DNA of 64,000 bases from Candidatus Eiseniibacteriota bacterium (lineage in GTDB: Bacteria > Eisenbacteria > RBG-16-71-46 > SZUA-252), in assembly GCA_005893265.1 (NCBI GenBank), contig VBOX01000087.1:128-64127 (forward strand), in the 5' to 3' direction. Positions 8,510 through 52,921 of this stretch are shown here, in pieces. Below the pieces are notes generated by a model. The model saw only the letters and a program-made list of their open reading frames with translations. It was not told the DNA's origin and did not search any database. Position 1 is the first letter of the stretch. Every line of letters begins with the position of its first letter. A program made the position numbers and the translations under genes.

Positions 8510-8563
8510 GGTTTCGTTCTCTGCCGTGGTCGCCGAGCCCACAATGTCAGGAATGATGGCTGT

Positions 8564-36664: not shown

Positions 36665-37497
36665 CCGGACGCGAGGCCCAAACGAATGCCCGTGATCGTT
36701 CCCCCGAACGCGTAGTCGAGCCTTCCCCAGGACGCCTCGATATTCCCTGTCCTCACTTCGAGCGCCGCCCCGATCCTGCCGGGGGCCGAGCCGCGTCCCA
36801 GCCTTAGGCGCAACGCCTCCCCGAACGGAACCTCGAGCGCCATGCGCGGGCCATGGGTCCCGTCCGGCTGCCAACGGTCCACGATCGCTACGCGCGCTGA
36901 TCCCGCGCTAAGCGAGGCGCCCAGCTCCAAGGCGGCGCGGACGGCCCCCCGCTCCAGCGCTCGGGTTCTCAGAATCCGGTCGCCACCGATCCACACATCC
37001 AGCCGCCCACCCGCTGCGCCGCGGGCGCATCCGCCGAGCGCCCAGCCACCCCAGGCTTCCGAGCCCTCGGGGAGAAAATCGAGGCGCTCCACGCGGAGGG
37101 CCAAAGCGATCGGGCGTGCGGCACGTTCCCTGACCTCAAGACGGACCGACGACTCGCCCGTCCCCGGGCCGGAGAGCGCAGCGTATTCAAGGCGGAACGC
37201 ATGAGTCTTTTGCTGCAGGGAGATGTCGAGCTGGTTCAGCGACAGGGCATCGGCGCCGAAGGGGGACGCGCGGGTTGCCCCAGCGCGCCACGAAAGTCCG
37301 GTCATGCCAGCCGACGCGGAGTCTGCGGGATCACCTGACGCCTCCGGGCTGGAACCACCATCGAAAGTGCGCCATGCGCCGTCGGTGGAAGCGGTGCCCA
37401 ACGCGTCCGGGCTGGCGTCCCGGAGCTCGAACGCTGCCCAGGCGTGGGGCAACGGCACCGCCGCGCTCCACAGGAGAAAGGCCGCGACGAACCTCAT
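36640..37497 (-). CDS. putative outer-membrane beta-barrel protein (signal peptide; 3' end undefined because the frame has no stop before entering the antisense of the convergent gene)
   Basis: ATG overlaps the TGA of the upstream LTD gene (ATGA). Signal MRFVAAFLLWSAAVPLPHAWA, then amphipathic beta-strands (AFRLEYAALSG, RLDYAFGGTITGIRLGL). The 36640 end is an arbitrary placement. Confidence 0.3.
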
Positions 37498-39251
37498 CGC
37501 GTCCACCGATCCACCACGGAGAGGGTAAGGGCTGCGCTCCTGATCGGCTCGCGGTCGTCCGGAATCGTTTCGGCCCGCACGATGTAGATCCCGGCCGGCA
37601 CGGGACTACCCTGGTCGTCGCGGCCGTCCCAGAGAAACGCTCCTTCACCCAGGATTCGCTGCCCGTCGACGAGGAGCCGCCGCGGGCGGCCCAGGAGGTC
37701 GTGCACGAAGACGCGGACCCGGCTCCCGCGCGCCTCCTCGCTGAATCGCAACACGACCGGGGCGGCCGGCAATCCGGGCGCCCGCCGAACCACGCGCGCG
37801 CTTGCGATGAGAAGCGAGCCGCGGCGTCCCACGCCCGTACCCGGGGCCGGGGCCTGAATGGAGTTCGGCCGAGCCGGCGTTCCCGATCGAGGGTCGATCG
37901 ATTCCGTCCAGGAGCTCGCCGACGCGCTGGGGAGCATCGTCCCGAGGCGCTCGAGCGATCCGTCTCGCGCGGTGTACCCCGCGCGATAGGGGACGACATC
38001 GGATGGCGTGCCGGACGCATCCACGACGCGCACACGGTCGGCGAAACCGTCCTCGCCGTCGGCGTCGTTGAGGGCCGCCCAGCCTCCGAGGCATCCTAGG
38101 ACCGCGCTGTCCGGCAGCGAGTAGCTCCTGCGCAACATCTCGGGGGACTGCGCGATGACAATGATCGCCCCCGCGTGAGCCGGGCGCGGTGTCGGCCCCC
38201 GATCGATCGCGTAGGCGCGGCCGCCCGCGTCGGAAAGCGCGAAGAACCCGACGTCCGCGACCTCTTCACGAGCCATCACCTCGACCCATTCCCCCGCCCC
38301 TCGATCCCGGAACGCGATTTCGTTCACGACGAGCGGGCCGGCCGTCGACCGCGCCTCAAGGAGCGCGGTGTCCGCGACGGCGGACCCATATGTGAATGGC
38401 TCAACGCCGAGATCGCGCAGGTAGAGCCGGAGACCGAACCTCCCGGGCGGAGGCGTGAAGAGCGCGCAGTGCACGCTCGCGCTTTCTCCCGGAGCGACGG
38501 TGGAGCCTGGGCTGATCCCCACCGGCGCGGCGGACCACGGGCTATCCGGCCTGTCCCCGACGCGCACGACAACCTCGGCTTGCCATCGAGCCGCCGGGAC
38601 CAACTGGCGCCCGAGGTTCTTCACGGTCGCCCGCAAGGTCGCGACATCCCCGGGCCATGGCACATCCGGCACGAGACGGGCGCTTCCGCGCGTGAAGGAG
38701 AGCCGGATGTCGGGATGGTTCGCGAGCCCCGGCGTGGGGCTCGGTTCGGGCGCCCAGTCCGCCGCGTTCCACTGGGTGTCCACACCGTCCGCAATCCGAG
38801 AGAGAGATTGTCCGGAGGATACGTCCGCGGCGGGCGCGCCCTCAAAGAGCTCGCGGGCGGTGAGCGTCCCGTAACCCAGGAGGTCGAGCACGATGCCCGC
38901 GCGGGTCAGACGAATCGCGTCCGGACCGTTCTGGAGGGGAGCGAGAAGGGAAGACCCCGGGATCAGAAACGCGTGCCGGGGAGACACCGAATCGCCGACC
39001 GCGCCCACGTAGACCGGGGTCCAAACCCCCGGTCGTGAGCCGTCGCCAGACTCCACCGCGATCCCGACCAGCGAAAGGGCGACGGTGTCCGGATTCCAGA
39101 GCTCCACGAACTCCGATCCCTCATCGATCCCCTCGGGGTCGTACAACACCTCGTTCAGGAGGATTTCGGCGTCGGAACGCGAAACGTGCGCGGCGAGCAA
39201 GACGAGAGCGGCGAGACAGAACGCGGGCTTGCGCCCGAACATGCGCGGCAT
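37494..39251 (-). CDS. secreted protein with two lamin-tail domains and C-terminal FlgD-Ig/T9SS-type sorting domain
   Basis: Start MPRMFGRKPAFCLAALVLLAAHVS with an AGGGGG RBS. ILLNEVLYDPEG.DEGSEFVELWNP and LVVNEIAFRDRGAGEWVEVM. C-term ..GEGAFLWDGRDDQGSPVPAGIYIVRAET. Confidence 0.7.
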   Translation of the reverse strand: MPRMFGRKPAFCLAALVLLAAHVSRSDAEILLNEVLYDPEGIDEGSEFVELWNPDTVALSLVGIAVESGDGSRPGVWTPVYVGAVGDSVSPRHAFLIPGSSLLAPLQNGPDAIRLTRAGIVLDLLGYGTLTARELFEGAPAADVSSGQSLSRIADGVDTQWNAADWAPEPSPTPGLANHPDIRLSFTRGSARLVPDVPWPGDVATLRATVKNLGRQLVPAARWQAEVVVRVGDRPDSPWSAAPVGISPGSTVAPGESASVHCALFTPPPGRFGLRLYLRDLGVEPFTYGSAVADTALLEARSTAGPLVVNEIAFRDRGAGEWVEVMAREEVADVGFFALSDAGGRAYAIDRGPTPRPAHAGAIIVIAQSPEMLRRSYSLPDSAVLGCLGGWAALNDADGEDGFADRVRVVDASGTPSDVVPYRAGYTARDGSLERLGTMLPSASASSWTESIDPRSGTPARPNSIQAPAPGTGVGRRGSLLIASARVVRRAPGLPAAPVVLRFSEEARGSRVRVFVHDLLGRPRRLLVDGQRILGEGAFLWDGRDDQGSPVPAGIYIVRAETIPDDREPIRSAALTLSVVDRWTR

Positions 39252-39360
39252 GGGATTCCCCCTTGAAGAGGAGGCGGGGGGAGTGTCGGTAGGATCGGCG
39301 GCGCTCGGGGAGCGCCCTCGCTCTCGGGGTACGTTGGAAGCCGGCGGGTCGGGTGACGCC

Positions 39361-41523
39361 CTAAAGCAAATGGAACCTCTTCCGCAAAACCCATTCCGCG
39401 GTCGCACCGAGGACGAGCACGAGGAAAAGCGGGACGTTGTGGAAAATATCCAGCTCGATGATGCGAGCCCTGGCGATGTCGGGCGAGCGCAGCCTCGCGA
39501 GAACCGGTCCCGAGCGGGCAAGGGGCGCGGCAACGCCTCCCGAGCGCGAGGCGAGCCGCTCGAGCACGGAAGGCTCCGCGCCAAGCGATTCAAATTCGAC
39601 TCCCTGCTCACCCACCGCGACCTGAAGGCTGTCGGTGCCCACCAATCGGCCCGCGCGCTCCACGCGCCCCACGAGCCAATAGACCCCCTCCGGAAGCGCG
39701 ATGGAGCCCGCGAAATCGCCCTGGATCGAGGCGCTGAGGCGCCCTTCACCGGCTACACCGCCGGCGCTCCGCCGCGCCCGCACGGTCGCCCGCGCCCCGG
39801 TGCCGACGGCGCCGTTCGCGAGCGCGAGCCGCACCGGGACCGCTCGCTCGGCCGGCGTCAGGTCGGGAGCGGAGATCCGAACCGGCCGGTCGTCCGCGCT
39901 CTGCGAGAGCCAGGCGTTGAGCCCTCCGAAGAAAGACGGCTCGATGCCGGCTCCGCCCCCCAGCCCGGCCGCCGTCAGGCCCCAGCGATAGACGCCCGCC
40001 GCGTTCAATACAGCGACACGGCCGGATCCGACCCGTCCGGCCAAGAGAAGTGGCGTGGTTTCGGTTCCGTAGCGCGCCTCGAGGAGGGGCGTGAGGGCAC
40101 TGCCTTTCAGGTTCAGGATGAGCGGCGACTGAATCGGCGGGAGCGAGCGCCAGGTGGCGACCGCGGTGGCGGCGTCCCCCCCGAGAAGCGAGACTTCGTG
40201 CGCCCTGCCGGCTTGAGACAGCTCCACCCCCGTGCTGGGCCCGGTCGCTCTGCCGAAGTCGCGCCACTCGAGGCCAAGAGCGTTCGTGAGAGGACCCGGG
40301 GCCGGGGGCCGATTGACCGGGTCGATCCAGAACAGCACGCCCCCTCCGCGATTGAGAAAACTTAGAGCCTCCGCGCTCCGCTCCGGGGTGAGCGTGCGGG
40401 AGTCGAATCGAAGGACAAGGACGTCTGCGTCGCGCAGCGCCTGCGCGAAGCTCTGTGGCGCGCCACCGGGGGCTCCAACGGAGGAGGATCCCGACGGAGC
40501 CCATCGCTGGATGGCCCAGGACGTGTCCTCCTCCACGCCGCGCGCGAAGGAGCGAAGGTCCCAGTCCCATGCCGTCGCCACAAGAGGTACCAGGCGTTTC
40601 GCCGGGCGTGCGGTGACCGCGATCAACCTCCTCTTGTTCTGTGTGATGGGATCCCCGGGCAAGCTGTCGAGCTTCACCGCGAGGAAATGCTTACCGCGTT
40701 CTCCGAGGGTGAAGGGGATCGTGACACGGCTCACCGAGCCGGGTCGCTCCAACGCGAACGAAGCGCGGCCCAGCTCCCGCGAGCCCTCGCTCAGGCGCGC
40801 GACCCCACGCGTCGCGGGGCGAGCCCCGTGGCGGACCGTCACGGAGAGCGTCGCCGGCCGACCGATGACGACCTCGCTCGGAGCATCGATCCCGCCGATG
40901 CCGGCCGTGGGAGGATCGCCTGTTGAGCCCACGACGAGCGCGAAGGCGGGTACGGTCGATGCCAGGGCGCGCTCCGGGTCCTCCCCGCGATTCACCGCGC
41001 CGTCGCTCAAGACAAGCATCGCCGCGAGCGAATCCGGATCCAGGCGGTCGAGCCCCTCGCGGATCGCATCCCCAAGCGCGGTCTCCCCCGCACCGCGCGT
41101 TTGGGTCGCGGCTTTCCACGACGAAGGTTTTCCAATCGGCCCCAACGAGGCATCGAAAGGCGCCAGCCGCACGTCGTACCGTCCCGAAAACCCACTCGCG
41201 ATCGCCGTCGCGGCGCTGTCCACAACCTCGCGCCGCGTTCGTCCCGCCGAGTCGCCGTCCCGGACCTCCATGCTTCCGGAATGGTCAACCAGGATGAGCA
41301 TCCGGTTCCGTTCGCGTGCTGCGCTCGAATACCGAACCACCGGGGCGAGCGAGGCGAAGAGGAGCGCCAGCAGCGTGGCGGTGCGGACGGCCGTGAGAAT
41401 CGCGCGGCGTCGCGGGAGGAGCGCCGGATACCGCGTGAGATAGAGCGAGAGCCCGAGAGCAAAGGCCGCCGCCAGGAGTACCAGCGCGACGATGTTGGGC
41501 GATGACGAGAGTGAGAAATTCAA
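39361..41523 (-). CDS. von Willebrand factor A (VWA) domain membrane protein (BatA-like; N- and C-terminal TM anchors)
   Basis: MIDAS motif MLILVDHSGSM..., two N-terminal TM helices, C-terminal TM VPLFLVLVLGATAEWVL. Confidence 0.65.
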   Translation of the reverse strand: MNFSLSSSPNIVALVLLAAAFALGLSLYLTRYPALLPRRRAILTAVRTATLLALLFASLAPVVRYSSAARERNRMLILVDHSGSMEVRDGDSAGRTRREVVDSAATAIASGFSGRYDVRLAPFDASLGPIGKPSSWKAATQTRGAGETALGDAIREGLDRLDPDSLAAMLVLSDGAVNRGEDPERALASTVPAFALVVGSTGDPPTAGIGGIDAPSEVVIGRPATLSVTVRHGARPATRGVARLSEGSRELGRASFALERPGSVSRVTIPFTLGERGKHFLAVKLDSLPGDPITQNKRRLIAVTARPAKRLVPLVATAWDWDLRSFARGVEEDTSWAIQRWAPSGSSSVGAPGGAPQSFAQALRDADVLVLRFDSRTLTPERSAEALSFLNRGGGVLFWIDPVNRPPAPGPLTNALGLEWRDFGRATGPSTGVELSQAGRAHEVSLLGGDAATAVATWRSLPPIQSPLILNLKGSALTPLLEARYGTETTPLLLAGRVGSGRVAVLNAAGVYRWGLTAAGLGGGAGIEPSFFGGLNAWLSQSADDRPVRISAPDLTPAERAVPVRLALANGAVGTGARATVRARRSAGGVAGEGRLSASIQGDFAGSIALPEGVYWLVGRVERAGRLVGTDSLQVAVGEQGVEFESLGAEPSVLERLASRSGGVAAPLARSGPVLARLRSPDIARARIIELDIFHNVPLFLVLVLGATAEWVLRKRFHLL

Positions 41524-41722: not shown

Positions 41723-42317
41723 TCAGCTTCTGGTCGGGCTCGAGCTGGCCGTCGGGGCGTCTCCCTTGGCGAACGCTTCGCGGCGCTCGCGCGTGTCGAG
41801 CTCGAGCTTGCGGAGGAGCACGTAGAGCTGAACAGGGTTCATCTCGCGCCCGCCGCGCTCCGGTTTCCGCAGATCCTTCTGGATTCTCATGAGGCCGTAA
41901 TCGGGGTGCTGGCGGACGATCTCGCGCACGAGGTCCTCGTCGGAAAGAACCGTCTCGCTACGTTGTGAGCCATGGGACTCGGTTCCCGAATGAGGCGCCC
42001 CTGCGACAGCGCCCGGAATCGTGGAGGTATTCGCCGGCACGATCGGTCCAAAGGAGGCGACCGCGAGGTCGGCGTCCGTATACGCCTGCAAGATGTTCTC
42101 GAACTCGAGAAGGTCGAAGACCTCCTTGACGTCGGCAGCCATCCCGGCGAGCTTCAGGTCTCCGCCGTGCTCACGGATTTCGCGGATTTCGCTGATGCGC
42201 TTGGAGACGCCGCTCCAGATCGGGGCTCGTCGTGGTGTCCACGTAGCCGGAGACGCGCAGAATCGACACCCCTTGGTTTTTGGACGCCTCTTCGACGTAG
42301 ACGTCGATTCCCTTCAT
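41723..42317 (-). pseudogene. anti-sigma-factor antagonist (STAS/SpoIIAA-like) gene disrupted by an internal out-of-frame deletion at a 9-bp tandem repeat; 3' part carries an HTH_21-like (IS3 transposase-type) segment
   Basis: GGAGGGGGAG RBS + ATG at 42317. N-part MKGIDVYVEEASKNQGVSILRVSGYVDTTTSPDLERRLQ aligns to the SpoIIAA N-terminus and stops at TGA. The +1 frame continues ISEIREIREHGGDLKLAGMAADVKEVFDLLEF (SpoIIAA C-terminus). The beta3/phospho-Ser (DSSG) segment is missing. Junction at CGAAATCCGCGAAATCCG. Confidence 0.5.
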
Positions 42318-44776
42318 TCTCCCCCTCCTTGTCCTTCTGGAGCGCGGTCGGCCCGGGCAGCCCCCGAGAGCGCCTGGGCCAGCCTTGCCATACGTCTATC
42401 GGTTCCGTTTTGGGCGAACTCGAGCCTTTTTTCCTTCGTGTTAAGTCCGTGGCGCCTTAGCGTTGCGTAGACAGCGGCCGGGGTCAAATTGGGGCCCGAG
42501 CGGCCCGTCGCGCGGAGCAGCTCCGCGACCCGTTTGGCCCCCATGAGAGGCTCCGCTTTCACGAGCGAAAGGATGGCCGCCTCTTCCTCGAGACTCGCCC
42601 TCGCGAGCCCTGAGCGGGGGCGAATGCTCTTCAAGCCCTCCTCCCCTCCGACTTCGGCCACCCGGCGGCGATAGCGGTAGTACGTCGACTGCGCCACCTG
42701 CAGCCGGTCACACGCTTCGGCGACGGGCACACCCTCCTGCTCGACGAGCCGGAAAAGCTCGCGCCGCGTCGACTCGATGCGCTGTTCGGGCTGCACCTTT
42801 TCCTTGATCGCGACCAGCGTGATGTCGTCGTTCTGGAGCGCGCCCGCGGTGAACTCATGGATCTCCCGGTCCAGCGCTTCCGAGAACTCCTGCGCGGTGA
42901 GATGCGCGTGCCTTTTGATCGCGCCGAGAAGCCTCGCCTCGCCGAACTGCTCCCGATTGGGATTCATGGCCTCGGTGATTCCATCGGTGTAGATCACGAT
43001 CATATCTTCCTGCTTGAGCGTCAGCCGCTCGACGCTGATGGTGCGGCGGAAGAGATCCGCGTCCGGCGCGTCGATCCCCACGGGAATCCCTTTCGGTTTC
43101 AAGAAGTAGGTCGCGTCCGACTCGCCGCGGTAGAGGATCATCGGATTGTGCCCCGCGCTGGCGTAGGTCACGACGCGGTTCACCGAATCGAGCACCACGT
43201 AAAACATCGTCACGAACATGCCCTTCTTCATGTCCTCGGTGACGAACGTGTTCATTCGGGCCATGACGTCCGATGCGGACCGATTCCCGCGCGCCTCCAT
43301 GCGGAGAGCGGTCCGGATCATCGTCATGACGAGCGAGCCGGGGACTCCTTTGCCCGACACGTCCGCGACCACGACGCCCACCGTCCGCTCGTCGACTTGC
43401 ACGAAATCGTAATAGTCCCCTCCGACCTCCTTGGCCGCGCGGTAGAGCGCCCCGATCTCGTAGCCCTCCAGCTCCGGCACGCTCCTGGGAAGGAGGCTCT
43501 GCTGGATCTCCTGCGCGACCTGCATCTCCTTCTGGAGCCGCTCCTGTTCGACGAGATTGCCCTGCGCCGCGCGGAACTTGGCGGTGATCTCGTTGAACGC
43601 GCGCGCGATCTCGTCGATCTCCTCGTTCCCGGAAGCGCCCACATCGGCCACCATCGTTCCTTCGCCGATCGCGCGCACGCTGTCGGAGAGCGCCTGGATC
43701 GGCCGCACGAAGATCCCGATCAGGATCATCGAGAGAACGCAGCCGAGAAAGAGCGTGAGAAGCGCGATCCCCGCAAGCTCGGCGCGCGCCGCCGCGATTC
43801 GTGCGCCGATCACCTGCTCGCTGATGCCGATCTGCACGTAGCCGATCACGGTCGCGAGGGCTTTCCCCGTTGAGCCCGCCCGCACGGGCTCGACGATGGT
43901 GCCGACCCCGTTGTTCACGAGGTAGCGGGGGGGCGCCCACTGGTTGCCGAGGCCCGCTCCGGATCCCTGCCGGAGCCCGCTCCGCTCCGTGGTGAAGAGC
44001 TCCTCGAATCGGTTGCTGCCCCATACGCGCCCGGCCGTGTCGAGGACCCGCGCCGACACGTATTCCGGGTTCGCCCGGAGCGCGGCGCGGATGGACTGGT
44101 TCAGGAGCGTCTGCTCGATCGACATCGGTTCGGGCCGCGAGAGCACCTCGGCCGCCGGGAGCGCGAGCCCGCGCGCGACGCTTCGGGCATGCGATATCGC
44201 TTCTCCCTGGATGCTTTGCATCTGCCGCGCGTGGATCACGCCGAAGGCAACCGCGACGAGGAATGTCATCGCGCCGAACGCCTGCAGGGTGTAGGCGAAA
44301 CGGAGCGAGCGGGGACGCCCGCCCCCTCCGACCCTCCGACGCCCTCGCCCGAGGCGCTTTGACATCGTGAGGACGTTTCCGTCCGGGCCCCCGCGATAGC
44401 GGACGTCGTCCATGAGCTGATTCATCAGGAAGACGCCGAGCCCGCCGCGCTTCCTCGTCTCCACGTACATCTTGAGATCGGGGCTCTTGACGTTGCGGAG
44501 GTCGAAGCTCTCGCCCTGGTCCCGGATCTCCATGGAGAACTCGCGCTGGTTTCCCGTCACCACGACTTCGATGAAGCCGGTCTTCCCCTTGTAACCGTGC
44601 TTCACGATGTTGGTGCAGGCTTCGTCTACCGCGAGCTTCGTGTTGGCGAGGATCTTTCCGGGTATCTGAATCTTCTCGCCGACGTCCTGGATGAAGTCGC
44701 GGATCTCGGCGAGATGGCGGTCCTCGGCAGGAACCTGGAGCCGGAAACGGCGGGTCGGTCCAGCCCTGGGACTCAT
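42314..44776 (-). CDS. multidomain partner-switching regulator: RsbW-like anti-sigma Ser kinase (HATPase_c_2), TM/sensor, HAMP, PP2C (SpoIIE/RsbU-type) phosphatase, C-terminal IS3-transposase-type HTH domains
   Basis: N-term LAVDEACTNIVKHGY...GGLGVFLMNQLMDDV. HAMP around IGEGTMVADVGASGNEEIDEIARAFNEITAKF. PP2C GGDYYDF, VVADVSGKGVPGSL, YASAGHNP, IYTDGITEA, NDDITLVAI. C-term ELFRLVEQEGVPVAEACDRLQVAQSTYYRYRRR and ..EEEAAILSLVKAEPLMGAKRVAELL..LTPAAVYATLRRHGL. Confidence 0.8.
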   Translation of the reverse strand: MSPRAGPTRRFRLQVPAEDRHLAEIRDFIQDVGEKIQIPGKILANTKLAVDEACTNIVKHGYKGKTGFIEVVVTGNQREFSMEIRDQGESFDLRNVKSPDLKMYVETRKRGGLGVFLMNQLMDDVRYRGGPDGNVLTMSKRLGRGRRRVGGGGRPRSLRFAYTLQAFGAMTFLVAVAFGVIHARQMQSIQGEAISHARSVARGLALPAAEVLSRPEPMSIEQTLLNQSIRAALRANPEYVSARVLDTAGRVWGSNRFEELFTTERSGLRQGSGAGLGNQWAPPRYLVNNGVGTIVEPVRAGSTGKALATVIGYVQIGISEQVIGARIAAARAELAGIALLTLFLGCVLSMILIGIFVRPIQALSDSVRAIGEGTMVADVGASGNEEIDEIARAFNEITAKFRAAQGNLVEQERLQKEMQVAQEIQQSLLPRSVPELEGYEIGALYRAAKEVGGDYYDFVQVDERTVGVVVADVSGKGVPGSLVMTMIRTALRMEARGNRSASDVMARMNTFVTEDMKKGMFVTMFYVVLDSVNRVVTYASAGHNPMILYRGESDATYFLKPKGIPVGIDAPDADLFRRTISVERLTLKQEDMIVIYTDGITEAMNPNREQFGEARLLGAIKRHAHLTAQEFSEALDREIHEFTAGALQNDDITLVAIKEKVQPEQRIESTRRELFRLVEQEGVPVAEACDRLQVAQSTYYRYRRRVAEVGGEEGLKSIRPRSGLARASLEEEAAILSLVKAEPLMGAKRVAELLRATGRSGPNLTPAAVYATLRRHGLNTKEKRLEFAQNGTDRRMARLAQALSGAARADRAPEGQGGGE

Positions 44777-44801: not shown

Positions 44802-46745
44802 TCATCGGCGCGCCTCCGACTTCATCCGCTCCCTCGCTTCGAGCACGTTCCGCCGGGCGCTCTCGTTCAGAGGATCGAGCAGGAGGATCTGCTCCCAGTT
44901 CCGGAGCGCCTCGCGGTAGTCGCCCGCGGTGAACGCCTCCATGCCCTTGATGTAGAGCTGCTTGATCCGCGCATCGAGCTCGGGCTTGGGCGTCGTGAGC
45001 CTGCGCTGGATTCGGTCGCGCCAGTCCCGCGCTTCGGGGCTCGTGGGATCCAGCGCGAGCGACCGTTCGACCGCCGCCTTCGCCTCCGCATACCGTCCTT
45101 CCGCGAACGCCCGCGCCACCTCGTTCAGTGCGCCGAGAGCGGCCAGCTTCCGGCTCAAGGTCTGCGCTTCCGATGCGCTCTTGCCGAGCGAGGTCTGGAG
45201 AGCGTCCCACAGGGTTCGTGCGCGCGGATCGTCGGGCTTGAGCCTCAGCGCGAGCGCCACCTGGCCCGCGGCGTCGAGGAGTCGCCCTCGTGCCTGAAGC
45301 GAGTCGGCGCGGGAGAGCGCGCGCTCGGCGGCACGGTCGCGCGCGGCGGCGACGTCCCGGACAAGGGCCGCGAGGGTGTCCTGGGACGCGCCGTCCGAGC
45401 CGCCCCCCGTTGAGATCCCGCGCAAGAGACCCGCCGCTTCCTCGGCGTCCCCCCGCGAGAGCGCCTGGCGGGCCATCTCCGCGAGCGTTGACCTGAGCCG
45501 CCGCCCGCTCTCCGAGGCGATCGCCGCCTGGGCGTTCCGCTCGATCTCGACACGCGCCCGCCCGGCGCGCTGGCTGTAGCTCGGCTCGCCGGGATCCGCG
45601 CGCTGGAGAACCTCCCAGAGCACAAGCGCGGTCTCCCAGTCACCCGAGCTCTCCGAGGTGTCCGCCTTCTTGCGGTCGCGTGCGATCTCGCCCGCGCGTT
45701 CCGCGCGGATGGAATCCTCCGCCGCCCGCCGAAGCTCGACCATGCGGCGCGATTCGTACTTGCTGATCGGCTCGCCCCACGCCATGCGCACCGCGAACTG
45801 CTGGGTCGCCTCGACGCTTCCGCTCTGGTAGGCGTAGTCGAAGCCGTAGCGCCGGAAGCGGAACCCTAGGCCGAAAATAGGATCCCCGTTCGAAATCCCG
45901 GCGCGAACGGCGCCCAGCCCCGCGCGCGTGAACTCGAGGCCGACGCGCGGCTTCATCCCTTCCCTCCCGCGGGTCCCGACGTCGAGCACGACCCTTCCTG
46001 CGCTCATTGGGTTCAGGCGCCATTCGGGGCTTCCGAGCCCTAAGCGGAACGATCGGTCAAGCGTCGAAGACGCACCGCCCAGGTCGAGCGAGCCCGCGAC
46101 GACGTTTTGCGCCGACACGCCGACTTGACCACCGCGGAGCACGGCCGGGCGGTAGAGGAAGCCCACGTCGAGCGCCGGGGCCGAAGCCGAAACGTCGCCG
46201 AGCGACTGGCCCAAGATCTTGAAGGTGAGCCCGCCCCAGATCGGCCCGCGCACGCGTCGCGCGACGCTGGCGGCCGCCGCCGTCTCGCGGTAGACGATCG
46301 AGCCGAGCGGCCGGTTCCCCGCGTCGTAGGCGTCGATTCCGCCGGTTCCGATCCGCGCAAAGCCAAGACCGACGCCTCCCAGGCCAGGAACGGGATAGGA
46401 GACGGCGGCAAGGTCCCAGGTCGTGGAGAACTGGAGCATTCCGTGGTGGACCAAGAAGGAGCGCTCATCCTGCGCCGCCAGGCCGGCCGGGTTCATGTAG
46501 ATCGCGAGCGGATCGAGCGCCACGCCCGTGAAGCCGCTCGCGGCGCCCGTGCTCGGCCAGCCCGCCGGCGTGGAAAGAAGGTCCGACGTCCCCGCGGTCT
46601 GGCCCGCGGCGCGCGCGCGCGTCCCGAAAAACGCGGCGAGGAGAAGCGACGCGGCGCAGATGGCACGGATCAGCCGCTGGGCGTTGATCCGGCGAAGTTG
46701 GCGGCGCAGGACGCGCCGGTTACGGAAGCATCGCCGCATTCTCAT
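44802..46745 (-). CDS. PorV/FadL-like outer-membrane beta-barrel fused to a C-terminal TPR-like domain
   Basis: Start MRMRRCF with a GGTGGGGGTG RBS; ATGA overlap with the giant upstream gene. Signal peptide; FTGVALDPLAIYMNPAGLAAQ resembles the PorV/FadL N-motif. C-terminal TPR-like helices (YIKGMEAFTAGDYREALRNWEQILLLDP). Confidence 0.6.
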   Translation of the reverse strand: MRMRRCFRNRRVLRRQLRRINAQRLIRAICAASLLLAAFFGTRARAAGQTAGTSDLLSTPAGWPSTGAASGFTGVALDPLAIYMNPAGLAAQDERSFLVHHGMLQFSTTWDLAAVSYPVPGLGGVGLGFARIGTGGIDAYDAGNRPLGSIVYRETAAAASVARRVRGPIWGGLTFKILGQSLGDVSASAPALDVGFLYRPAVLRGGQVGVSAQNVVAGSLDLGGASSTLDRSFRLGLGSPEWRLNPMSAGRVVLDVGTRGREGMKPRVGLEFTRAGLGAVRAGISNGDPIFGLGFRFRRYGFDYAYQSGSVEATQQFAVRMAWGEPISKYESRRMVELRRAAEDSIRAERAGEIARDRKKADTSESSGDWETALVLWEVLQRADPGEPSYSQRAGRARVEIERNAQAAIASESGRRLRSTLAEMARQALSRGDAEEAAGLLRGISTGGGSDGASQDTLAALVRDVAAARDRAAERALSRADSLQARGRLLDAAGQVALALRLKPDDPRARTLWDALQTSLGKSASEAQTLSRKLAALGALNEVARAFAEGRYAEAKAAVERSLALDPTSPEARDWRDRIQRRLTTPKPELDARIKQLYIKGMEAFTAGDYREALRNWEQILLLDPLNESARRNVLEARERMKSEARR

Positions 46746-49700
46746 CGCAGCACCCCCACCTTGACCTGCTCGCTCACCCCCGGTCCTTCGATCCGGGCGA
46801 CGTAGACACCGGGGCGCACGACCTCCCCTTTGCCGTTCCGTCCGTCCCAACGCACTTCGTTCAAGCCGCTCGCGCCGCCCACCCCTCCCGAAGGGAGCGA
46901 CAGCTCCCGCACCAGGTCGCCAAGGAGCGTGTAGATGGAAACCTTGACCGAAGCGTCCTGGCCAAGAACGTAGGAGAGAAGGACCGCTTCGCTCCCGGCG
47001 TGGAAGGGATTCGGATAGCCGTGCGGCCGGTCGAAGAACGTGATCTCGCGGGAGGCGAGCGCCGTGAATGGAAGCCCGCCGCCCCCCACGATGGGCACAC
47101 GGGTCCCGGTGAGCCCGTCCAGGGCCACGAGGTCGTTCGCCTGCGCGACCTGGAGCGCGACGCGGACGGCGGGCGAGCCAGGGCGGAACGCGACATCGAC
47201 GAAGAGCGATTCCGGCCCGTTCGTCATGATGAGCGGCTGGGTAAGGCTGAGCGTGAAGGGATTCGGCGCGCCCGGAGGCGGCGCCCCTTGCGCGAGGAGC
47301 GCGCCCACGCGATCGCGGAGCGAGATCGAGGACACCGAGGACGCGGGCGGGAGGCCGGTGGAGCCGTCCGCGACGATGGTGATCGCGACCGACGTCAGCG
47401 AATCCTTCGTCGAAACGCCGGTCTGGACGAGCGGCAAGAGCTCGAGCCCCCACGCGCGGATCGGCGGCCCGCCCCGCGCGAGCTGGACCGGCACGGCGGC
47501 GTCGAGGCCGCGGACCTGGATCGCGGCGAGCTGCCCGAGCACGGTGAGCTCGCTGTCGGGAGAGGTAGCGGCGGCGCTCGCGGCCAGCGCCCATTCGGTC
47601 CCGCCGATCGCGAGGTCCACCCGATAGGGCTGGCTCGCCATCGCCGCGGGGACGAGAACACCCGGGAACACCAGCGCGGCCTGGGTGCTCGGTGCGAGCA
47701 GAAAGGCGGGGCCGGAGGCGAGGCCGGTCATGACCTCGCTGCCGTCGCTCAAGGTGAAGCGCGTCTGGGCGGGATCGATCACGAAGGGGGACCCCCCGCT
47801 GTTCTGAACATCGAGGGTGAGATCCACCGTCTGGCCCGGACGTACTTGGCTCGGCGCGGTCGAGCGCCCGACGAACTGAAGCAGCGCCGGCGGCATCGCG
47901 TGGAGCGTGCCCCCGGGGAGGCTCTGGGCGCGCGCGACGCCGTCTTCGATGCCGAACACGTCGAGCGTCGCCGCGGCGTTCCCAGGCGAGGCGGGCGAGC
48001 CCAGAGGACCGCCGGTGAAGGCAAGGTTGAGCGACTGGCCCGGGTTCACGGTGGGCGAGGCGCTCAGGGTGCGCGTGACCGACACCGGGGCGCCGAGCTT
48101 GAGCACGGTTGCGGGGTCGAGTGCCATGGGCACGTCACCGTCGTTCCGGAGCGTGAGCGACACGGGACGCGATTGCCCCGCGCTCACGGTGTCCGGAGCG
48201 AGCGACCCGGCAACCACCGTGAGGAGCGCGGGGTCGAGAACGTCGATGCTGTCGGGCGCCGAGGGAACGGTGTCGGCAAAGGCCTGTCCGGATTCCGTGC
48301 CGTCGAGGAAGAGACGCGCGCGGTAGCGCCCCTTGGGCACGCCGACCGCAGGCACCGCGAGCGAGTCGAATGCGAGGGTCGCCTGGTCGGAAGCGAGGAC
48401 GGCGGTGTTCGCGGATAGCGCCGTCGTGAGCGTCGTCCCGCCCGCATCGAGCTCGAGGCGCGTGGTGTTTCGATTGAGGGTGACCGCCGCGGCGCCCGTG
48501 TTCGCGACGCGCACGGTGGGAGCGAACGTCCGCCCGCGCAGGAGACGCTGCGGCGTCCCGCTGCCCGCGACCGCGACGACGCGAGCGGCCGAGATCACGC
48601 GGAAGCTGAGCGGGATGGAGTTCGACGCGACCACCGGCGTGCCCGCGAAGGTGACCGTCGCCTGGAGCGTCGAGTTGATCGTCGTCCCGGAAGGGATCCC
48701 ACCCGACGGCACCGCGACCGGAAACGTGAACCGGGTGGTTCCGCCTGCCGGGATGGTCGTCCCGAGCGGAGGCGTCGGCGCTCCGCTGATGAACGCCCCG
48801 GTCGAGTAGCTCAAGCTGCCGCCCGTGATGTCGCCCGGCGTCCCGGATAGATTCGCGACGTCGAAGACCAGTGAGAGGTTCTGGTATCCGAGCGGCGCGG
48901 GATCGGGCGAGGCGCTGACTTTGGCGACGCTCAATCCGAGCACGCTCACCTGCGACCCGGCGAGGCTCAGGTAGAAGTCGAAGGCGTCCCCGGTGGCACC
49001 CGTGCCGACCGCCCGAAAGCTGGGCGCGTACGCGCCGGGGGTCAGCGCGGCGGGGGCGGCCCCGGCGGCGAACGTCAGCGTCGTCGTGGCGCCCGCACCG
49101 ATCGCGGCCGTTGAGCCGAGCGCCGCCGTGAAGGTGGTCGCGCCCGAGCCGAACGAGAAGAGGGATCCGGTACCGAGCTGGATCGCGCCCGCGCCCGTGT
49201 TCCGCGCCTGGAGCGCGAACGTGACGCTTCCCCCGGGGATCACGGCTCCCGGCGCCAGCGAGCCGGCGACGTAGGCCAGCGAAGGAGGCGGCACGTAGGT
49301 GAAGGCGTGGCTTCCCGCGGCGGATCCGGCGCGGGAGGCGGCGGTGAGGGTATCGGGACCGGGCGCGCCCGGAGCGATCAGGATCAAGGATGCCCTGCCG
49401 TCCGCGGCCGTCGCCAGGTCGAGGCCCGGGAAGAGCGCGCTGGCGTCCGAGGCGAGCAGGGTCCCCGCAAGCGCGCTCACGCCCACGAGCGTCCCAGCGC
49501 TGACGAGGTTCCCGAACGCGTCCCGCACCGGCCCGAGCACGACGGTGGACGCGCTCCTGCCGTCGGCCGTCAAGCTGTCGCGGGTCGCCGCGACGGGGAT
49601 CGCGCCGGAGGGCGCGGCGGGGGACACCGTCGCCGTGCCGCCGGTCCCGCTGCCGCCGCCTGTGCGGTCGGCCCCGATCGCGAACGACTGCGCCACAGTG

Positions 49701-52700
49701 TCCCGTCCGGTGGAGACGAACCGGCCCGCGACGAGCGGGCCCGAGGCCGGGCCCCACACGACCGAGCCAGCTCCGCGCATCGTGACCGGCGCTCCGTCCG
49801 TCACGACAACGTTCCCGAACGAATCGACGGCCTCCACGAGCACGCTCTCTGGCACACCGGCCGTCCAGCTCAGCGACTTGGGCGACACGCGCAGCGCGAT
49901 GGTCGCGCCGGGAGCCGTCGCTGCGCGGATCCCGACCGGACCGAGCGAGCCGCCGCTCGCGAAGATCGAATCCGCCGCGGGGGCCGCGTTCGGCGCCCGA
50001 TAGCGGACCGCGAGCTGGCCCGAGCCGTTCGTGACGCCACCTTGTGACCCCGGACCCCCGGAGGTTGACCCGAGGGATTCGAGAGAACCCATAGCGCTCG
50101 GCCCCCCAAGGAACACGGTGAGCGCGAGACCGGAGATCGGATTGCCCTGGCCGTCGCGCGCGGTGACGGTCACGGTTCCGGTTTGTGCCGGGGTGAGCGA
50201 GAGCGAGCCGGGGGACATCGTGAGGGCCGCCGGCGGGTTCACCGCGACCGGCCCGTAGGTCACCGAGCGCGGGCCGTCGCTCACGACAATCGTGAGGGGG
50301 CTCGCAAGCGTCGGGGTCACGGGAATCGAGGCTGAGCCCGCGGCGAGGATGACCGAGTCGGGGACGGTGGCGCCCCCCGAGGTCACTGTGGGCCGGAGCA
50401 CGTTCCCGTTCTGGCCGGGCAGGGAGTTCCCGAACGAATCGTGCGCGTTAATCGTCAAAATGACGCCGGAGCCCGCCGTCAAAGGTGGCGCAGGGCCCGC
50501 GACCGTGTAGTGGTCGAGCGGTCCTGGCTGGAAGACGATCCCGGGCTCCGCGGCAAGGGGGATCCCCCGTGCCGTGACATGGACGGAACCGGTGTCCGGG
50601 ATCGTGGCCGTGGCGCGGAAATCGATCCTGCCCCCGGAATCGGTCGCGGAGGCCAGCGGCGTGGTGCTTGCCGATGCGCCAACCACCGTGACCACGACCG
50701 AAGCCGCCTGGACGCCGCCGAGAGGATGGTCCTGGCCATCCCGGAGGGTAATCGCCACCACGCTCCCGGAAGCGCCGACCGGAACGGGCGAATCCGCCGT
50801 GACGGTCGAACGCGACGCGCTCACGGCCCCGGGTACGAGGCGGATGCCCAGGGTCCCGGTCGAGGAGCCGTTGCGCAGCGCGGTCGCGATGACCTGCGCT
50901 GTCCCCAACGAATCACCTCCGAAGAGCGAGAGGGTGATCCCGCCGGCGGAAGCAAGGACCTGGACGCCGGGCGCCGGATCGGCGTCGGCGTTCTGAATCG
51001 CGCCGAGCGTGGTCGAGACCGTGTATTTCTCGCCGTTCTCCACCTGGTTGCCGTTCGCGTCGTGGAGGCCCGCCGCACCGAGGGTCAGCGTCGCCAGGCT
51101 GTCCGCCGCGAGGGAGTCCGGGGAAGCGGAGAGGGTGATCGCGCCGGAGGGTGCGCCGGCGCGAAGACGAATCGGAGCGGCGCCGGTAGCGCTTCCCCGC
51201 TCGGATTGAACCGTAGCCCCGCCCAGGCCGGCCGTGACTCCGACCCTGAGGTAGCCGCGTACGGCACCCGTGGAGTCGGCGAGCAGCTGCGCGCCTCCGG
51301 TCCCGGGATCCTGGTCGGTGACCTCGGTGAGCAGGGCGCCGCCGTCGAACGCGAAGCGCTCTCCCAGCGCGACGGCATTCCCGAACGAATCGAGGGCCGC
51401 GCCCGAGACGAGAACCGAATCGACCCCATTGGCGACGAGCGTGTCGGGCGTCGCGGTCAGCGCGACCACGGCCGGTACGTTCGGCCCGGTGAAGACAGGC
51501 GCGCCGGCCGTTCCGAGGAACGGGGAGTTACCGTTCGCGTCGATGGCGCGGACGCGCCCCTCGGCCGTCGTCCTCTGTGTGTCTCGGAAGCGAAAACGCG
51601 CGGAGTCAGAGAACGCCGGAATCGTGATCTCGAAGATCGTGCTCGTGCCCGCGACGCTCTGGAAGGTGGCCGCTGGGCGATCGGTCCAGAGCGTGAGCGT
51701 CTCGGGAGCCGGGACCGGGGAACGATTCCCGAACGCGTCTACAACGCGCACGCTGACCGTGTCGGGGACGCCGGCCGTGAGCTTCAAGGTATCGGGCTCG
51801 AGCGCGATCCGGTCGGGGCCTCCTGGGGAAACGGCGACGCGATGCCTGCTCGACACGTATCCCGCCGTCGAGTCGATCACGGAAAAGTAGAACGCCCCTG
51901 CCTTCCGAGCGAACGCGATGTAGGTAAGGGATGCGGCCGATCCCGGGCCGTCGGTGATCGTGTTCCCGTCCGCGTCCCGCGAGCCCGCGGTTACCGGGAA
52001 CGCGGTCCCCGCGGCGGCGGACCCGGGCGCGGTCATCGCAAGCCCTGCGTAGGCCCCATGGACCACCGAGATCGCTCCCGTCGAATCGGACCACACCCCG
52101 CTGTCCGCGATGGCGTACGCCGTTCCAGGCGTGTCGAGCCTGAGCACCGTGCGGGTGCCGTTGCTCGGCACGGGCGCTCCGACTCCGCCGGTCAGGGTCC
52201 AGTTCGCCCGGATCAGGCGCGTCAGGTTCCCGTACTTGTCGTAACCGCGCAGGAAGAGCTGCGTCGAGTCCTGATCGGTCGTGCGCGTCAGGGGGCCGAC
52301 CACCGCGTTGGCTCCGTCGACGACCTTCGCGGAGGCGACCCGGCCGGGAACCACCGAAACCCACGGGGAGAACTGAATGGCAGCCGGCGATCCGGTCAGC
52401 GTGGGATCGCTCCGGACGCGAAAGTAGACGGTGTCCTGCGCCGTCGTCTGGGGGTGCGCCGATGCGTGCCCGCCTCCCGCCCCGTAGATAACACTGACCG
52501 ACCCGCCCGTCTGAAACGGATCTTTGGGCGGCGCGCCCAGGAGGAGACGAATCGTGTCCCCGACGGTGACCACGGAGTTCACGTAGTTGTCGTCGGTCCA
52601 GCTGACATAACCCGGCGAGATCGGGCTCGAGGTCTGCGGCGGGGTCCACCCGGAAGGAATGACGACGTCGACCGACCCGCCCGTGACGGAGAAATCCTCG

Positions 52701-52921
52701 GTCGGCGCGTATTGAATCGTCCAGATACTGCTGTCCGTCACCGCTACGGGGCTCGGGCCCAGGATGATCGCCGTGCCGGTGCCGGGGCCCGCGAGCGCGG
52801 GCCGCGCCAGAGTGAATCCAAGCAACGCCATCGCGACGACCGCCCCGCGGAAAGCGGACGCACGGGTGCGTCGGCGCTTTGTATTCGCGCGGCTCTCGCG
52901 TGGCTGGGCTGTTTCCTGCAT
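46742..52921 (-). CDS. giant (2059 aa) secreted surface protein with repeated Ig-like/invasin-like modules and C-terminal FlgD-Ig/T9SS-type sorting domain
   Basis: Signal peptide (..AVVAMALLGFTLARPALA). Thr/Ser/Gly/Ala-rich beta-repeat composition throughout. C-term FFDRPHGYPNPFHAGSEAVLLSYVLGQDASVKVSIYTLLGDLVREL...GVYVARIEG. Confidence 0.75.
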   Translation of the reverse strand: MQETAQPRESRANTKRRRTRASAFRGAVVAMALLGFTLARPALAGPGTGTAIILGPSPVAVTDSSIWTIQYAPTEDFSVTGGSVDVVIPSGWTPPQTSSPISPGYVSWTDDNYVNSVVTVGDTIRLLLGAPPKDPFQTGGSVSVIYGAGGGHASAHPQTTAQDTVYFRVRSDPTLTGSPAAIQFSPWVSVVPGRVASAKVVDGANAVVGPLTRTTDQDSTQLFLRGYDKYGNLTRLIRANWTLTGGVGAPVPSNGTRTVLRLDTPGTAYAIADSGVWSDSTGAISVVHGAYAGLAMTAPGSAAAGTAFPVTAGSRDADGNTITDGPGSAASLTYIAFARKAGAFYFSVIDSTAGYVSSRHRVAVSPGGPDRIALEPDTLKLTAGVPDTVSVRVVDAFGNRSPVPAPETLTLWTDRPAATFQSVAGTSTIFEITIPAFSDSARFRFRDTQRTTAEGRVRAIDANGNSPFLGTAGAPVFTGPNVPAVVALTATPDTLVANGVDSVLVSGAALDSFGNAVALGERFAFDGGALLTEVTDQDPGTGGAQLLADSTGAVRGYLRVGVTAGLGGATVQSERGSATGAAPIRLRAGAPSGAITLSASPDSLAADSLATLTLGAAGLHDANGNQVENGEKYTVSTTLGAIQNADADPAPGVQVLASAGGITLSLFGGDSLGTAQVIATALRNGSSTGTLGIRLVPGAVSASRSTVTADSPVPVGASGSVVAITLRDGQDHPLGGVQAASVVVTVVGASASTTPLASATDSGGRIDFRATATIPDTGSVHVTARGIPLAAEPGIVFQPGPLDHYTVAGPAPPLTAGSGVILTINAHDSFGNSLPGQNGNVLRPTVTSGGATVPDSVILAAGSASIPVTPTLASPLTIVVSDGPRSVTYGPVAVNPPAALTMSPGSLSLTPAQTGTVTVTARDGQGNPISGLALTVFLGGPSAMGSLESLGSTSGGPGSQGGVTNGSGQLAVRYRAPNAAPAADSIFASGGSLGPVGIRAATAPGATIALRVSPKSLSWTAGVPESVLVEAVDSFGNVVVTDGAPVTMRGAGSVVWGPASGPLVAGRFVSTGRDTVAQSFAIGADRTGGGSGTGGTATVSPAAPSGAIPVAATRDSLTADGRSASTVVLGPVRDAFGNLVSAGTLVGVSALAGTLLASDASALFPGLDLATAADGRASLILIAPGAPGPDTLTAASRAGSAAGSHAFTYVPPPSLAYVAGSLAPGAVIPGGSVTFALQARNTGAGAIQLGTGSLFSFGSGATTFTAALGSTAAIGAGATTTLTFAAGAAPAALTPGAYAPSFRAVGTGATGDAFDFYLSLAGSQVSVLGLSVAKVSASPDPAPLGYQNLSLVFDVANLSGTPGDITGGSLSYSTGAFISGAPTPPLGTTIPAGGTTRFTFPVAVPSGGIPSGTTINSTLQATVTFAGTPVVASNSIPLSFRVISAARVVAVAGSGTPQRLLRGRTFAPTVRVANTGAAAVTLNRNTTRLELDAGGTTLTTALSANTAVLASDQATLAFDSLAVPAVGVPKGRYRARLFLDGTESGQAFADTVPSAPDSIDVLDPALLTVVAGSLAPDTVSAGQSRPVSLTLRNDGDVPMALDPATVLKLGAPVSVTRTLSASPTVNPGQSLNLAFTGGPLGSPASPGNAAATLDVFGIEDGVARAQSLPGGTLHAMPPALLQFVGRSTAPSQVRPGQTVDLTLDVQNSGGSPFVIDPAQTRFTLSDGSEVMTGLASGPAFLLAPSTQAALVFPGVLVPAAMASQPYRVDLAIGGTEWALAASAAATSPDSELTVLGQLAAIQVRGLDAAVPVQLARGGPPIRAWGLELLPLVQTGVSTKDSLTSVAITIVADGSTGLPPASSVSSISLRDRVGALLAQGAPPPGAPNPFTLSLTQPLIMTNGPESLFVDVAFRPGSPAVRVALQVAQANDLVALDGLTGTRVPIVGGGGLPFTALASREITFFDRPHGYPNPFHAGSEAVLLSYVLGQDASVKVSIYTLLGDLVRELSLPSGGVGGASGLNEVRWDGRNGKGEVVRPGVYVARIEGPGVSEQVKVGVLR

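Follow-up and report, generated by a model that had tools for sequence, protein, structure and literature searches.

A sorting-tail surface protein coupled to a PorV/PorQ-like barrel-TPR protein in Candidatus Eisenbacteria: a possible variant of type IX cargo anchoring beside partner-switching genes

The DNA analysed here, hereafter the window, is a 64-kb stretch from a soil Candidatus Eisenbacteria. Its minus strand carries an open reading frame with an ATG start for a giant secreted repeat protein of 2059 aa (46742..52921 (-)), which we take to be the module's cargo or surface protein, followed by a gene for a barrel-TPR fusion protein of 647 aa (44802..46745 (-)). Direct reading of the sequence placed the TGA of the giant gene and the ATG of the barrel-TPR gene on four shared nucleotides, ATGA (46742..46745 (-)), within ctgcgATGAgaatg, just as the original prediction had stated. 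A 930-aa open reading frame in the same frame (44802..47594) was rejected as the downstream gene, since the homologues of the barrel-TPR protein, at least 144 at 57% identity or more, are nearly all between 600 and 700 aa in length and their alignment begins at the ATGA start.

The giant protein begins with a signal peptide region (residues 1-44, including AVVAMALLGFTLARPALA; 52790..52921 (-)) containing a hydrophobic segment at residues 21-44; a putative cleavage site was placed by reading the sequence. Internal repeats were found by self-comparison of 110-aa segments and fall into two families. Family A, at approximately residues 310-1210 (49292..51994 (-)), was recognised by self-comparison together with Pfam and consists of Ig-like, Big_1/Invasin_D3-like repeats. 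Family B, at approximately residues 1195-1800 (47522..49339 (-)), was recognised by self-comparison and comprises CARDB-like modules, about five in number and 110-115 aa in length; faint CARDB matches occur at the orthologous position in locus L009. In Pfam, Invasin_D3 reached 45.8 bits on the giant protein, and Big_1 and FlgD_ig stayed below threshold. The open reading frame, the hydrophobic segment and the Invasin_D3/Big_1 matches agree with the earlier description of a signal-peptide protein of 2059 aa built of Ig-like modules. Orthologues of 2100-2380 aa occupy the same position in Eisenbacteria contigs, and over all loci the passenger ranges in length between about 230 and more than 4954 aa, with the tail conserved.

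The C-terminal sorting tail (residues 1969-2059; 46745..47017 (-)) was studied with TIGR04183 on the isolated tail, an AlphaFold model, Foldseek and tail-to-tail scores. A FlgD-Ig/T9SS-type tail had been proposed, and this held for the isolated last 120 aa, which scored 25.0 bits with TIGR04183 (cut-off 23), but not for the protein searched as a whole, where the tail region stayed below both cut-offs (FlgD_ig 25.7 bits against 27, TIGR04183 19 against 23). TIGR04183 was matched by 35 of 35 homologous tails. The AlphaFold model is a seven-strand sandwich whose pLDDT exceeds 90 between residues 30 and 120 of the modelled fragment. In Foldseek it matched FlgD (E 4.9e-4) and, among T9SS structures, the C-terminal domains of PorZ (5m11, 1.3e-3) and PorU (6za2, 3.3e-3); in NCBIfam the tail also aligned with the PorU and PorZ models at their C-terminal ends. 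With a seven-strand beta-sandwich at the extreme C-terminus and an N-terminal hydrophobic signal segment, the protein has the architecture of type A tail proteins, and an orthologous fragment carries the NCBI name 'T9SS type A sorting domain-containing protein'. Models of PorP/SprF or of type B tails gave no match in either protein at E up to 0.1.

The tail of the giant protein represents a subtype of its own within the T9SS type A / FlgD-Ig domain. Against the tails encoded beside barrel-TPR genes in other phyla it scored 52-94 bits, and against the other sorting tails of the window 12-22 bits. The proteins bearing the latter are three in total (33604..36594 (+), 37494..39749 (-) and 61647..62579 (-)), one fewer than the original count of four. 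Across phyla, conservation of the upstream protein is limited to the tail. Since the tail is far closer to distant barrel-linked tails than to those of its own genome, tail and barrel appear to be a dedicated pair.

The barrel-TPR protein was assigned from its homologues, its AlphaFold model (mean pLDDT 80.7) and its match to the PorV/PorQ model NF033709 (E 3.4e-15), which at 56.4 bits stays below the curated cut-off of 90 and aligns residues 67-236 to model positions 15-201 of 326. The N-terminal half consists of a hatch with a conserved YxNPAGL motif (residues 56-94) and a 14-strand beta-barrel (residues 95-323; hatch and barrel together 45777..46580 (-)), that is, the FadL-type barrel with N-terminal hatch by which PorV and PorQ are recognised structurally. 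The rest (residues 327-647; 44805..45767 (-)) is helical throughout in the model and exceeds the cut-offs of TPR_2 (33.4 bits) and TPR_14 (29.3 bits). Hence the resemblance to PorV/FadL in the N-terminal half was upheld, whereas the TPR-like part, described at first as the C-terminal third, makes up half of the protein. The strand number of the barrel is even, and the TPR domain is therefore predicted to be periplasmic. The barrel loops are very short, 14 residues at most. The most conserved parts of the fusion are the last TPR and the hatch, with 15 columns at 90% conservation or more in the last 60 residues across relatives that are 25-40% identical. Some relatives of the fusion are named as PorV/PorQ family by NCBI and UniRef; we treat the protein as a divergent relative that may work like this family, not as a curated member.

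Relatives consisting of the barrel only scored 100-129 bits with NF033709, above its cut-off, and were found in related candidate phyla and on a contig with 68% GC. PorU was absent beside the barrel-only PorV-like genes at two loci, L011 and L012. At L012 a gene for a PorZ-like tail protein is followed by two tandem PorV/PorQ barrel genes.

Two further systems were considered for the pair and rejected on fold scores and on their defining architecture, which was not found here. These are the exopolysaccharide TPR-porins (PgaA, BcsC, PelB), in which a 16-18-strand barrel follows an N-terminal TPR region, and the inverse autotransporters (intimin/invasin, type Ve), in which a 12-strand barrel and a Big_1/Invasin passenger form one polypeptide.

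Loci were collected with a degenerate pattern of about 53 bits, built by hand from the C-terminal TPR motif. At 105 species-representative loci from Eisenbacteria, Krumholzibacteriota, Latescibacterota, UBP1 and unlabelled MAGs the same order recurred, namely a tail protein, the barrel-TPR protein and a membrane RsbW/Cache/HAMP/PP2C protein; a TA06 homologue came from a separate protein search. The tail protein preceded the barrel-TPR gene in 62 of the 76 loci where this could be tested, and the kinase/phosphatase lay directly downstream of it in 84 of 98. Exceptions belong almost all to a weakly similar side group. The order is kept among relatives that are only 25-40% identical. The arrangement had been called unusual for a genome of this kind; on the contrary, such pairs are standard in Eisenbacteria and related candidate phyla. 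Pattern matches titled 'Spirochaetota', which were either stand-alone barrel-TPR proteins or TPR-only proteins with kinase/phosphatase and STAS genes, were excluded from the triad.

Both genes are present at 64 loci of other species; the 4-nt overlap of the window is repeated at 38 of these, and at 63 the genes lie no more than 20 nt apart, so that a chance arrangement can be set aside. One alternative is that the barrel-TPR protein has nothing to do with the giant protein, being a FadL-like uptake channel, a BamG-like BAM accessory or a TPR-porin like PgaA, BcsC or PelB, and that their co-location is regulatory; we give this proposal little credence.

Another alternative is that the barrel-TPR protein is the general PorV of these phyla, serving all tail cargo, and that its place beside the giant gene is a matter of operon history. 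Nearly all pattern-matched genomes have one such locus, annotation pipelines label the protein PorV/PorQ, and in Flavobacterium one PorV serves all type A tails (PMC12618676). We consider it unlikely, however, because the adjacent tail is of a cross-phylum subtype to which tails of the same genome are much less similar, and because the translational coupling is conserved. In addition, the barrel-only PorV/PorQ proteins that pass the family cut-off in related phyla make a separate general PorV plausible.

The genes of the tail protein and the barrel-TPR protein stand at the head of a more extensive conserved cluster, in which the kinase/phosphatase is the most constant third member. In the window this is an 820-aa transmembrane partner-switching protein (42314..44776 (-)), identified from its Pfam domains and membrane segments. 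It consists, in order, of an RsbW-like HATPase_c_2 domain, a transmembrane segment (residues 163-181), a periplasmic Cache-like loop (182-338), a second transmembrane segment (339-357), HAMP, PP2C (SpoIIE) and HTH. The Pfam matches were SpoIIE (172 bits), HATPase_c_2 (109 bits), HAMP, HTH_23 and a weak sCache_3_2. The next gene encodes an RsbV-like STAS protein (41723..42318 (-)) and is broken: with the intact 224-aa STAS product of locus L001 as tblastn query, residues 1-40 and 68-224 were found in different frames of the window, and DNA alignment revealed an apparent 80-nt deletion, at 42197-42199, relative to the intact orthologous loci. The three components of a partner switch, a HATPase_c_2 kinase, a SpoIIE/PP2C phosphatase and an adjacent STAS gene, are thus all present, the STAS copy of the window with its 80-nt deletion. 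Further on lies a gene for a 720-aa membrane protein of vWA type (39361..41523 (-)), recognised from its translation and membrane segments, with two N-terminal transmembrane segments, a VDHSGSM MIDAS-like motif and one C-terminal transmembrane segment; it had no family match in the Pfam and NCBIfam scans. Its homologues follow the STAS gene in Eisenbacteria, several Krumholzibacteriota and unlabelled loci, so that it is a frequent downstream member of the cluster. The C-terminal HTH is carried by the kinase/phosphatase in Eisenbacteria. In other phyla this protein has fused STAS domains, and genes for a ParA/MinD-like ATPase and TPR proteins come next. With a membrane partner switch as the third constant member, the likely function of the module shifts towards anchoring plus signalling.

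To our knowledge, research on type IX secretion has been almost wholly based on Bacteroidota. Our literature searches gave nothing on T9SS in Eisenbacteria, Krumholzibacteriota, Latescibacterota or related candidate phyla, and nothing relevant on PorV together with TPR or partner-switching. We favour, at somewhat better than even confidence, the explanation that in Candidatus Eisenbacteria the module is a cognate cargo-anchor unit, part of a T9SS-like pathway for surface proteins, and it is probably coupled to envelope signalling. The giant Ig-repeat protein would be exported via Sec, cross the outer membrane by way of its C-terminal sorting tail, presumably with the help of a T9SS translocon, and then be anchored on a PorV/PorQ-like 14-strand barrel dedicated to it, the product of the overlapping gene. 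This would resemble PorU and PorZ, which retain their tails and are seated on PorV and PorQ, and the holding of type B cargo on cognate PorP/SprF barrels. The co-inherited tail subtype lends indirect support to a putative binding of the tail by the barrel. The helical/TPR arm of about 320 residues would extend on the periplasmic side, and the transmembrane RsbW-kinase/PP2C-phosphatase would act upon the STAS protein. The strong conservation of the last TPR and the hatch would fit a partner in the periplasm. The arm may contact the sensor and couple the partner switch to the surface protein's occupancy or state, or the switch may control the module; gene order is the one observation that points to such a coupling.

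Several observations speak against this explanation. Firstly, Pfam and NCBIfam scans of the approximately 40 open reading frames of the window found none of the core genes SprA, GldK/L/M/N or PorU. Secondly, the barrel falls short of the NF033709 cut-off, and PorV-style tail binding, judged from the PorV structure, leads one to expect long surface loops, which the barrel lacks. Finally, the partner-switch genes may merely regulate the operon and not receive a signal, and the STAS gene of the window is broken. The two genes could also be a self-contained, T9SS-independent system, in which the barrel helps to export or insert the Ig-repeat protein in a manner similar to split type V secretion. 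Arrays of Big_1/Invasin_D3 are the passengers of type V intimins and invasins. We hold such a self-contained system to be improbable. The 'Spirochaetota'-titled side group, lying outside the triad, has no bearing on independence from T9SS.

The cargo-anchor module shares features with four known systems. With PorV-PorU and PorQ-PorZ of the Porphyromonas/Flavobacterium T9SS it has in common a 14-strand FadL-type barrel and a partner with a type A-like beta-sandwich tail. It differs from them in that the barrel is fused to the predicted periplasmic helical/TPR domain, has very short loops and stays below the family cut-off, in being translationally coupled and outside Bacteroidota, and in having an Ig-repeat surface protein as partner where those systems have a sortase or an LPS-delivery protein. 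The type B/PorP-SprF systems (SprB-SprF; PorE-PorP-PG1035) likewise link a cargo gene to the gene of a dedicated outer-membrane barrel, cognate shuttles being known for type B tails (PMC12618676). There too a giant repeat adhesin sits on its own barrel, and a TPR protein, PorE, is the periplasmic partner, with a PorE-PorP-cargo complex on record (PMC12618676, PMC9143113). In the present module, however, the barrel is PorV/PorQ-like, the tail is type A-like and the TPR is fused to the barrel, which places it outside that class. In the PorA-PorY/PorX-SigP system of P. gingivalis, a PorV-bound tail protein is the ligand of an inner-membrane sensor, the tail of PorA signalling to PorY (PMC12152298), which sets a precedent for a sorting tail coupled to signalling. 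In the module, the place of the two-component histidine kinase would be taken by an RsbW-kinase/PP2C-phosphatase partner switch that has STAS as its substrate. As in RsbU/RsbV/RsbW and SypE-SypA, an RsbW-like HATPase_c_2 and a PP2C domain are combined in one polypeptide with STAS encoded adjacent, and we take the 820-aa protein to be similar to SypE-SypA and to membrane RsbU proteins. Unlike these, the switch of the module is fixed beside an outer-membrane barrel-TPR protein and a sorting-tail protein.

A more far-reaching reading, which we put forward tentatively and regard as possible at best, is that the triad serves FCB candidate phyla as an outside-in signalling device, one not recognised before. 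The TPR arm would relay the state of the barrel-docked surface protein to the loop that the kinase/phosphatase has in the periplasm, and this would set the phosphorylation of STAS and an output through the HTH in Eisenbacteria, or through the ParA-like ATPase and TPR proteins elsewhere. If so, the sorting tail would be a signalling ligand as well as an address label.

In Bacteroidota, a single PorV is common to all type A tails, and private PorP/SprF shuttles occur only for type B. The module has the look of a type IX cargo-anchoring variant that has not been described before and may be wired to signalling; if the cargo-anchor explanation is true, it would be the first case in which a type A-like tail has a PorV-family barrel to itself, the barrel being fused to a predicted periplasmic TPR arm. 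Its conservation extends over at least four uncultured phyla that are common inhabitants of soil and sediment, and the approximately 60 natural tail/barrel pairs in hand make it a concrete system for studying tail-barrel matching and co-variation. The fixed link to a partner switch suggests a route for trans-envelope sensing or control of surface-protein display.

Two reading frames with an ATGA overlap had been proposed from the nucleotide sequence, and the window sequence bore them out. The ORF at 46742..52921(-) encodes a giant protein of 2059 aa, and the ORF at 44802..46745(-), directly downstream, a 647-aa protein combining a barrel and TPRs (barrel-TPR). At ctgcgATGAgaatg the TGA of the giant gene shares bases with the ATG of the barrel-TPR gene. 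For the latter, a longer ORF in the same frame (930 aa) was rejected, since 144 homologues of the protein were approximately 600-700 aa long and their alignments began at the ATGA start. Almost all named homologues came from Candidatus Eisenbacteria, and soil metagenome contigs carried an identical protein. The GC content of the window was 57-73%.

The giant protein has a hydrophobic signal segment (residues 21-44), followed by Ig-like Big_1/Invasin_D3 modules (approximately 310-1210), about five CARDB-like modules (approximately 1195-1800) and a C-terminal sorting domain, the tail. In the whole-protein scan the tail was sub-threshold for both FlgD_ig (25.7, cut-off 27) and TIGR04183 (19, cut-off 23); the isolated last 120 aa passed TIGR04183 (25.0), which also matched 35 of 35 homologous tails. 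The AlphaFold model of the tail, built from 35 sequences, had seven strands with pLDDT >90. Its best Foldseek match was FlgD (E 4.9e-4), followed by the C-terminal domains of PorZ (5m11, E 1.3e-3) and PorU (6za2, E 3.3e-3). One orthologous fragment is labelled by NCBI as "T9SS type A sorting domain-containing protein".

The barrel-TPR protein matched the NCBIfam PorV/PorQ family model with E 3.4e-15 and 56.4 bits, which is below the cut-off of 90, and the PorQ model more weakly; TPR_2 and TPR_14 were above their cut-offs at residues 546-627. The AlphaFold model, with 44 orthologues as input and a mean pLDDT of 80.7, consisted of a signal region, a hatch with a conserved YxNPAGL motif (residues 56-94), a 14-strand barrel (95-323) and an all-helical half (327-646). 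Type V barrel and polysaccharide TPR-porin identities were both rejected, with scores of only 10-14 and Foldseek in agreement. PorV-style tail binding is expected from the PorV structure to need long surface loops; the longest loop of this compact barrel has at most 14 residues, and such loops are therefore lacking. Barrels with an even strand number have both termini in the periplasm, which would place the TPR half there. The most conserved regions of the fusion were the hatch and the last TPR, which suggests a conserved periplasmic partner.

The third gene (42314..44776(-)) encodes an 820-aa kinase/phosphatase with an RsbW-like kinase domain (109 bits), two transmembrane segments (residues 163-181 and 339-357) enclosing a Cache-like loop of approximately 155 residues, and, C-terminal to these, HAMP, PP2C/SpoIIE (172 bits) and HTH domains. 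In orthologous loci it is followed by a STAS gene. The RsbV-like STAS gene of the window (41723..42318(-)) has an 80-nt deletion relative to locus L001 (12652..13326), by which the EYISSAGWG core is lost and the frame shifted. On L001, an otherwise identical contig, STAS is intact and it is the kinase/phosphatase that is broken, into pieces of 464 and 380 aa; these breaks represent either population variation or assembly error. Further downstream (39361..41523(-)) lies a membrane protein of approximately 720 aa with three transmembrane segments, two N-terminal and one C-terminal, and a vWA/MIDAS-like motif, VDHSGSM. It matched no family in Pfam or NCBIfam, and its homologues are encoded after STAS in Eisenbacteria as well as in several loci from Krumholzibacteriota or without a label.

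Within Eisenbacteria, the contigs of barrel-TPR orthologues P0073, P0078 and P0011 (59-76% identity to the window protein) shared one gene order: pyruvate phosphate dikinase, GT2 (3 of 4 contigs), multihaem cytochrome (3 of 4 contigs), CDP-alcohol phosphatidyltransferase, giant tail-bearing protein (2100-2380 aa), barrel-TPR, the 820-aa HATPase_c_2/HAMP/SpoIIE protein, STAS, the ~720-aa protein without family match, and an LTD plus tail protein of ~600 aa. Searched alone against the full library, the barrel gave 2234 cluster representatives at E <=0.001. Among the top 150, 78 of 149 tested, mostly 540-720 aa long, also matched the C-terminal helical/TPR region, which makes the fusion an old architecture rather than a local event. 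Three relatives at 25-35% identity (L008-L010) kept the tail-bearing protein, the barrel-TPR and a kinase/phosphatase of 867-1417 aa, with fused STAS domains in two of the three, followed by ParA/MinD-like ATPase, STAS and TPR genes.

One genome per species was scanned with a degenerate DNA pattern of ~53 bits, derived from invariant C-terminal TPR residues. The 105 loci found were titled Eisenbacteria/Eiseniibacteriota (31), Krumholzibacteri- (20), Spirochaet- (16), Latescibacterota (4), UBP1 (2) and other names (7), with 25 unlabelled. By local HMM searches, 84 of 98 testable loci had the kinase/phosphatase directly downstream of barrel-TPR, and 62 of 76 had a tail-bearing ORF directly upstream. 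In each count, 12 of the 14 exceptions fell in a side group of weak similarity, for the most part Spirochaet-titled; in the other two (L092 and L104) the barrel-TPR ORF was broken, yet adjoined a tail ORF. Where both genes were present, they overlapped by 4 nt in 38 of 64 loci and were <=20 nt apart in 63. The original prediction was largely right on domain identities and pairing, but wrong in holding the arrangement to be unusual for such genomes; the T9SS assignment is putative.

Seven GenBank MAG records (L016, L028, L032, L039, L085, L090, L110) bore the titles Omnitrophota, Acidobacteriota, Hyphomicrobiales, Limnocylindrales, Patescibacteria, Dormiibacterota and Binatia, likely through bin contamination or mislabelling. 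Six had a locus near-identical to that of Eisenbacteria in sequence and architecture; L085 had the same architecture, but similarity only at the level of distant relatives. Three Spirochaetota-titled MAGs, L100 (CP070841.1), L087 and L114, encoded a protein of TPRs only, which shares the C-terminal TPR motif and has no barrel match; it is full-length in L100 and cut by the locus edge in the others. A weaker homologue of the kinase/phosphatase comes next, and in L100 and L087 STAS as well. Stand-alone barrel-TPR genes with neither neighbour adjacent occurred in L025, L064, L076 and L113, also Spirochaetota-titled.

Four other sorting-domain proteins had been counted in the window; we found three, which with the giant protein makes four tail-bearing proteins in 64 kb. 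All three have PNPF...WDG-type tails: a 996-aa protein with an InhA-like MAM match (33604..36594(+)), an LTD-domain protein (37494..39749(-)) and a 310-aa protein (61647..62579(-)) whose tail aligns to the PorZ and PorU model ends. A 493-aa TPR protein (7061..8542(-)) matched the FxSxx-COOH system TPR model at 242 bits, below the cut-off of 300, and weakly the PorW/SprE and gliding-motility TPR lipoprotein models. Outside the window, Marinimicrobia JAFGXZ010000280.1 (L012 1950..5384) carries a gene for a protein of 529 aa with a tail like that of PorZ, followed by a tandem pair of PorV/PorQ-family genes that encode barrels only (304 and 299 aa) and both score above the cut-off of the family. 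It is a further case, from an FCB candidate phylum, of a tail-bearing protein beside barrels of the PorV/Q type.

Across phyla, the protein upstream of barrel-TPR was conserved only in its last ~100 residues, and passenger size ranged from ~230 to >4954 aa. The largest such upstream protein, of >4954 aa with many Big_1/Invasin_D3 modules, was that of a distant relative from an unlabelled MAG (L008 1..10001, 249-kb contig); its counterpart in L010 had only 303 aa in all. The window tail gave 52-94 bits against tails adjoining distant barrel-TPR genes, whereas two of the other tail-bearing proteins of the window gave 22 and 12 bits and the third was unmatched; therefore, a distinct tail subtype travels with barrel-TPR. 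A cognate tail/barrel pair predicts this, and a general shuttle does not. Accounts in which barrel-TPR is a general PorV, or an unrelated envelope barrel, fit less well, since a co-inherited tail subtype is better explained by a cognate module, and the same applies to a T9SS-independent two-gene system.

The reading with the best support is that of a cognate cargo-anchor module in a T9SS-like pathway. The tail of the giant protein would direct export and then dock on its own PorV/PorQ-like barrel, while the periplasmic TPR arm would tie the module to the partner-switching sensor, or the sensor may regulate the module. We infer the tail-barrel and TPR-sensor contacts from gene order and conservation only. 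No SprA, GldK/L/M/N or PorU was found within the 64-kb window, and we found no literature on T9SS in Eisenbacteria, Krumholzibacteriota or Latescibacterota. Precedents for such a module exist. PorU and PorZ, which are seated on PorV and PorQ, retain their tails. Cognate PorP/SprF barrels are linked to type B cargo, with PorE, a TPR protein, as a binding partner of PorP (PMC12618676, PMC9143113); the PorY sensor is activated by the PorA tail (PMC12152298). Four features are novel: a type A-like tail with a PorV-family barrel of its own, the fusion of that barrel to TPRs, a partner switch fixed as the neighbour, and an occurrence beyond Bacteroidota.
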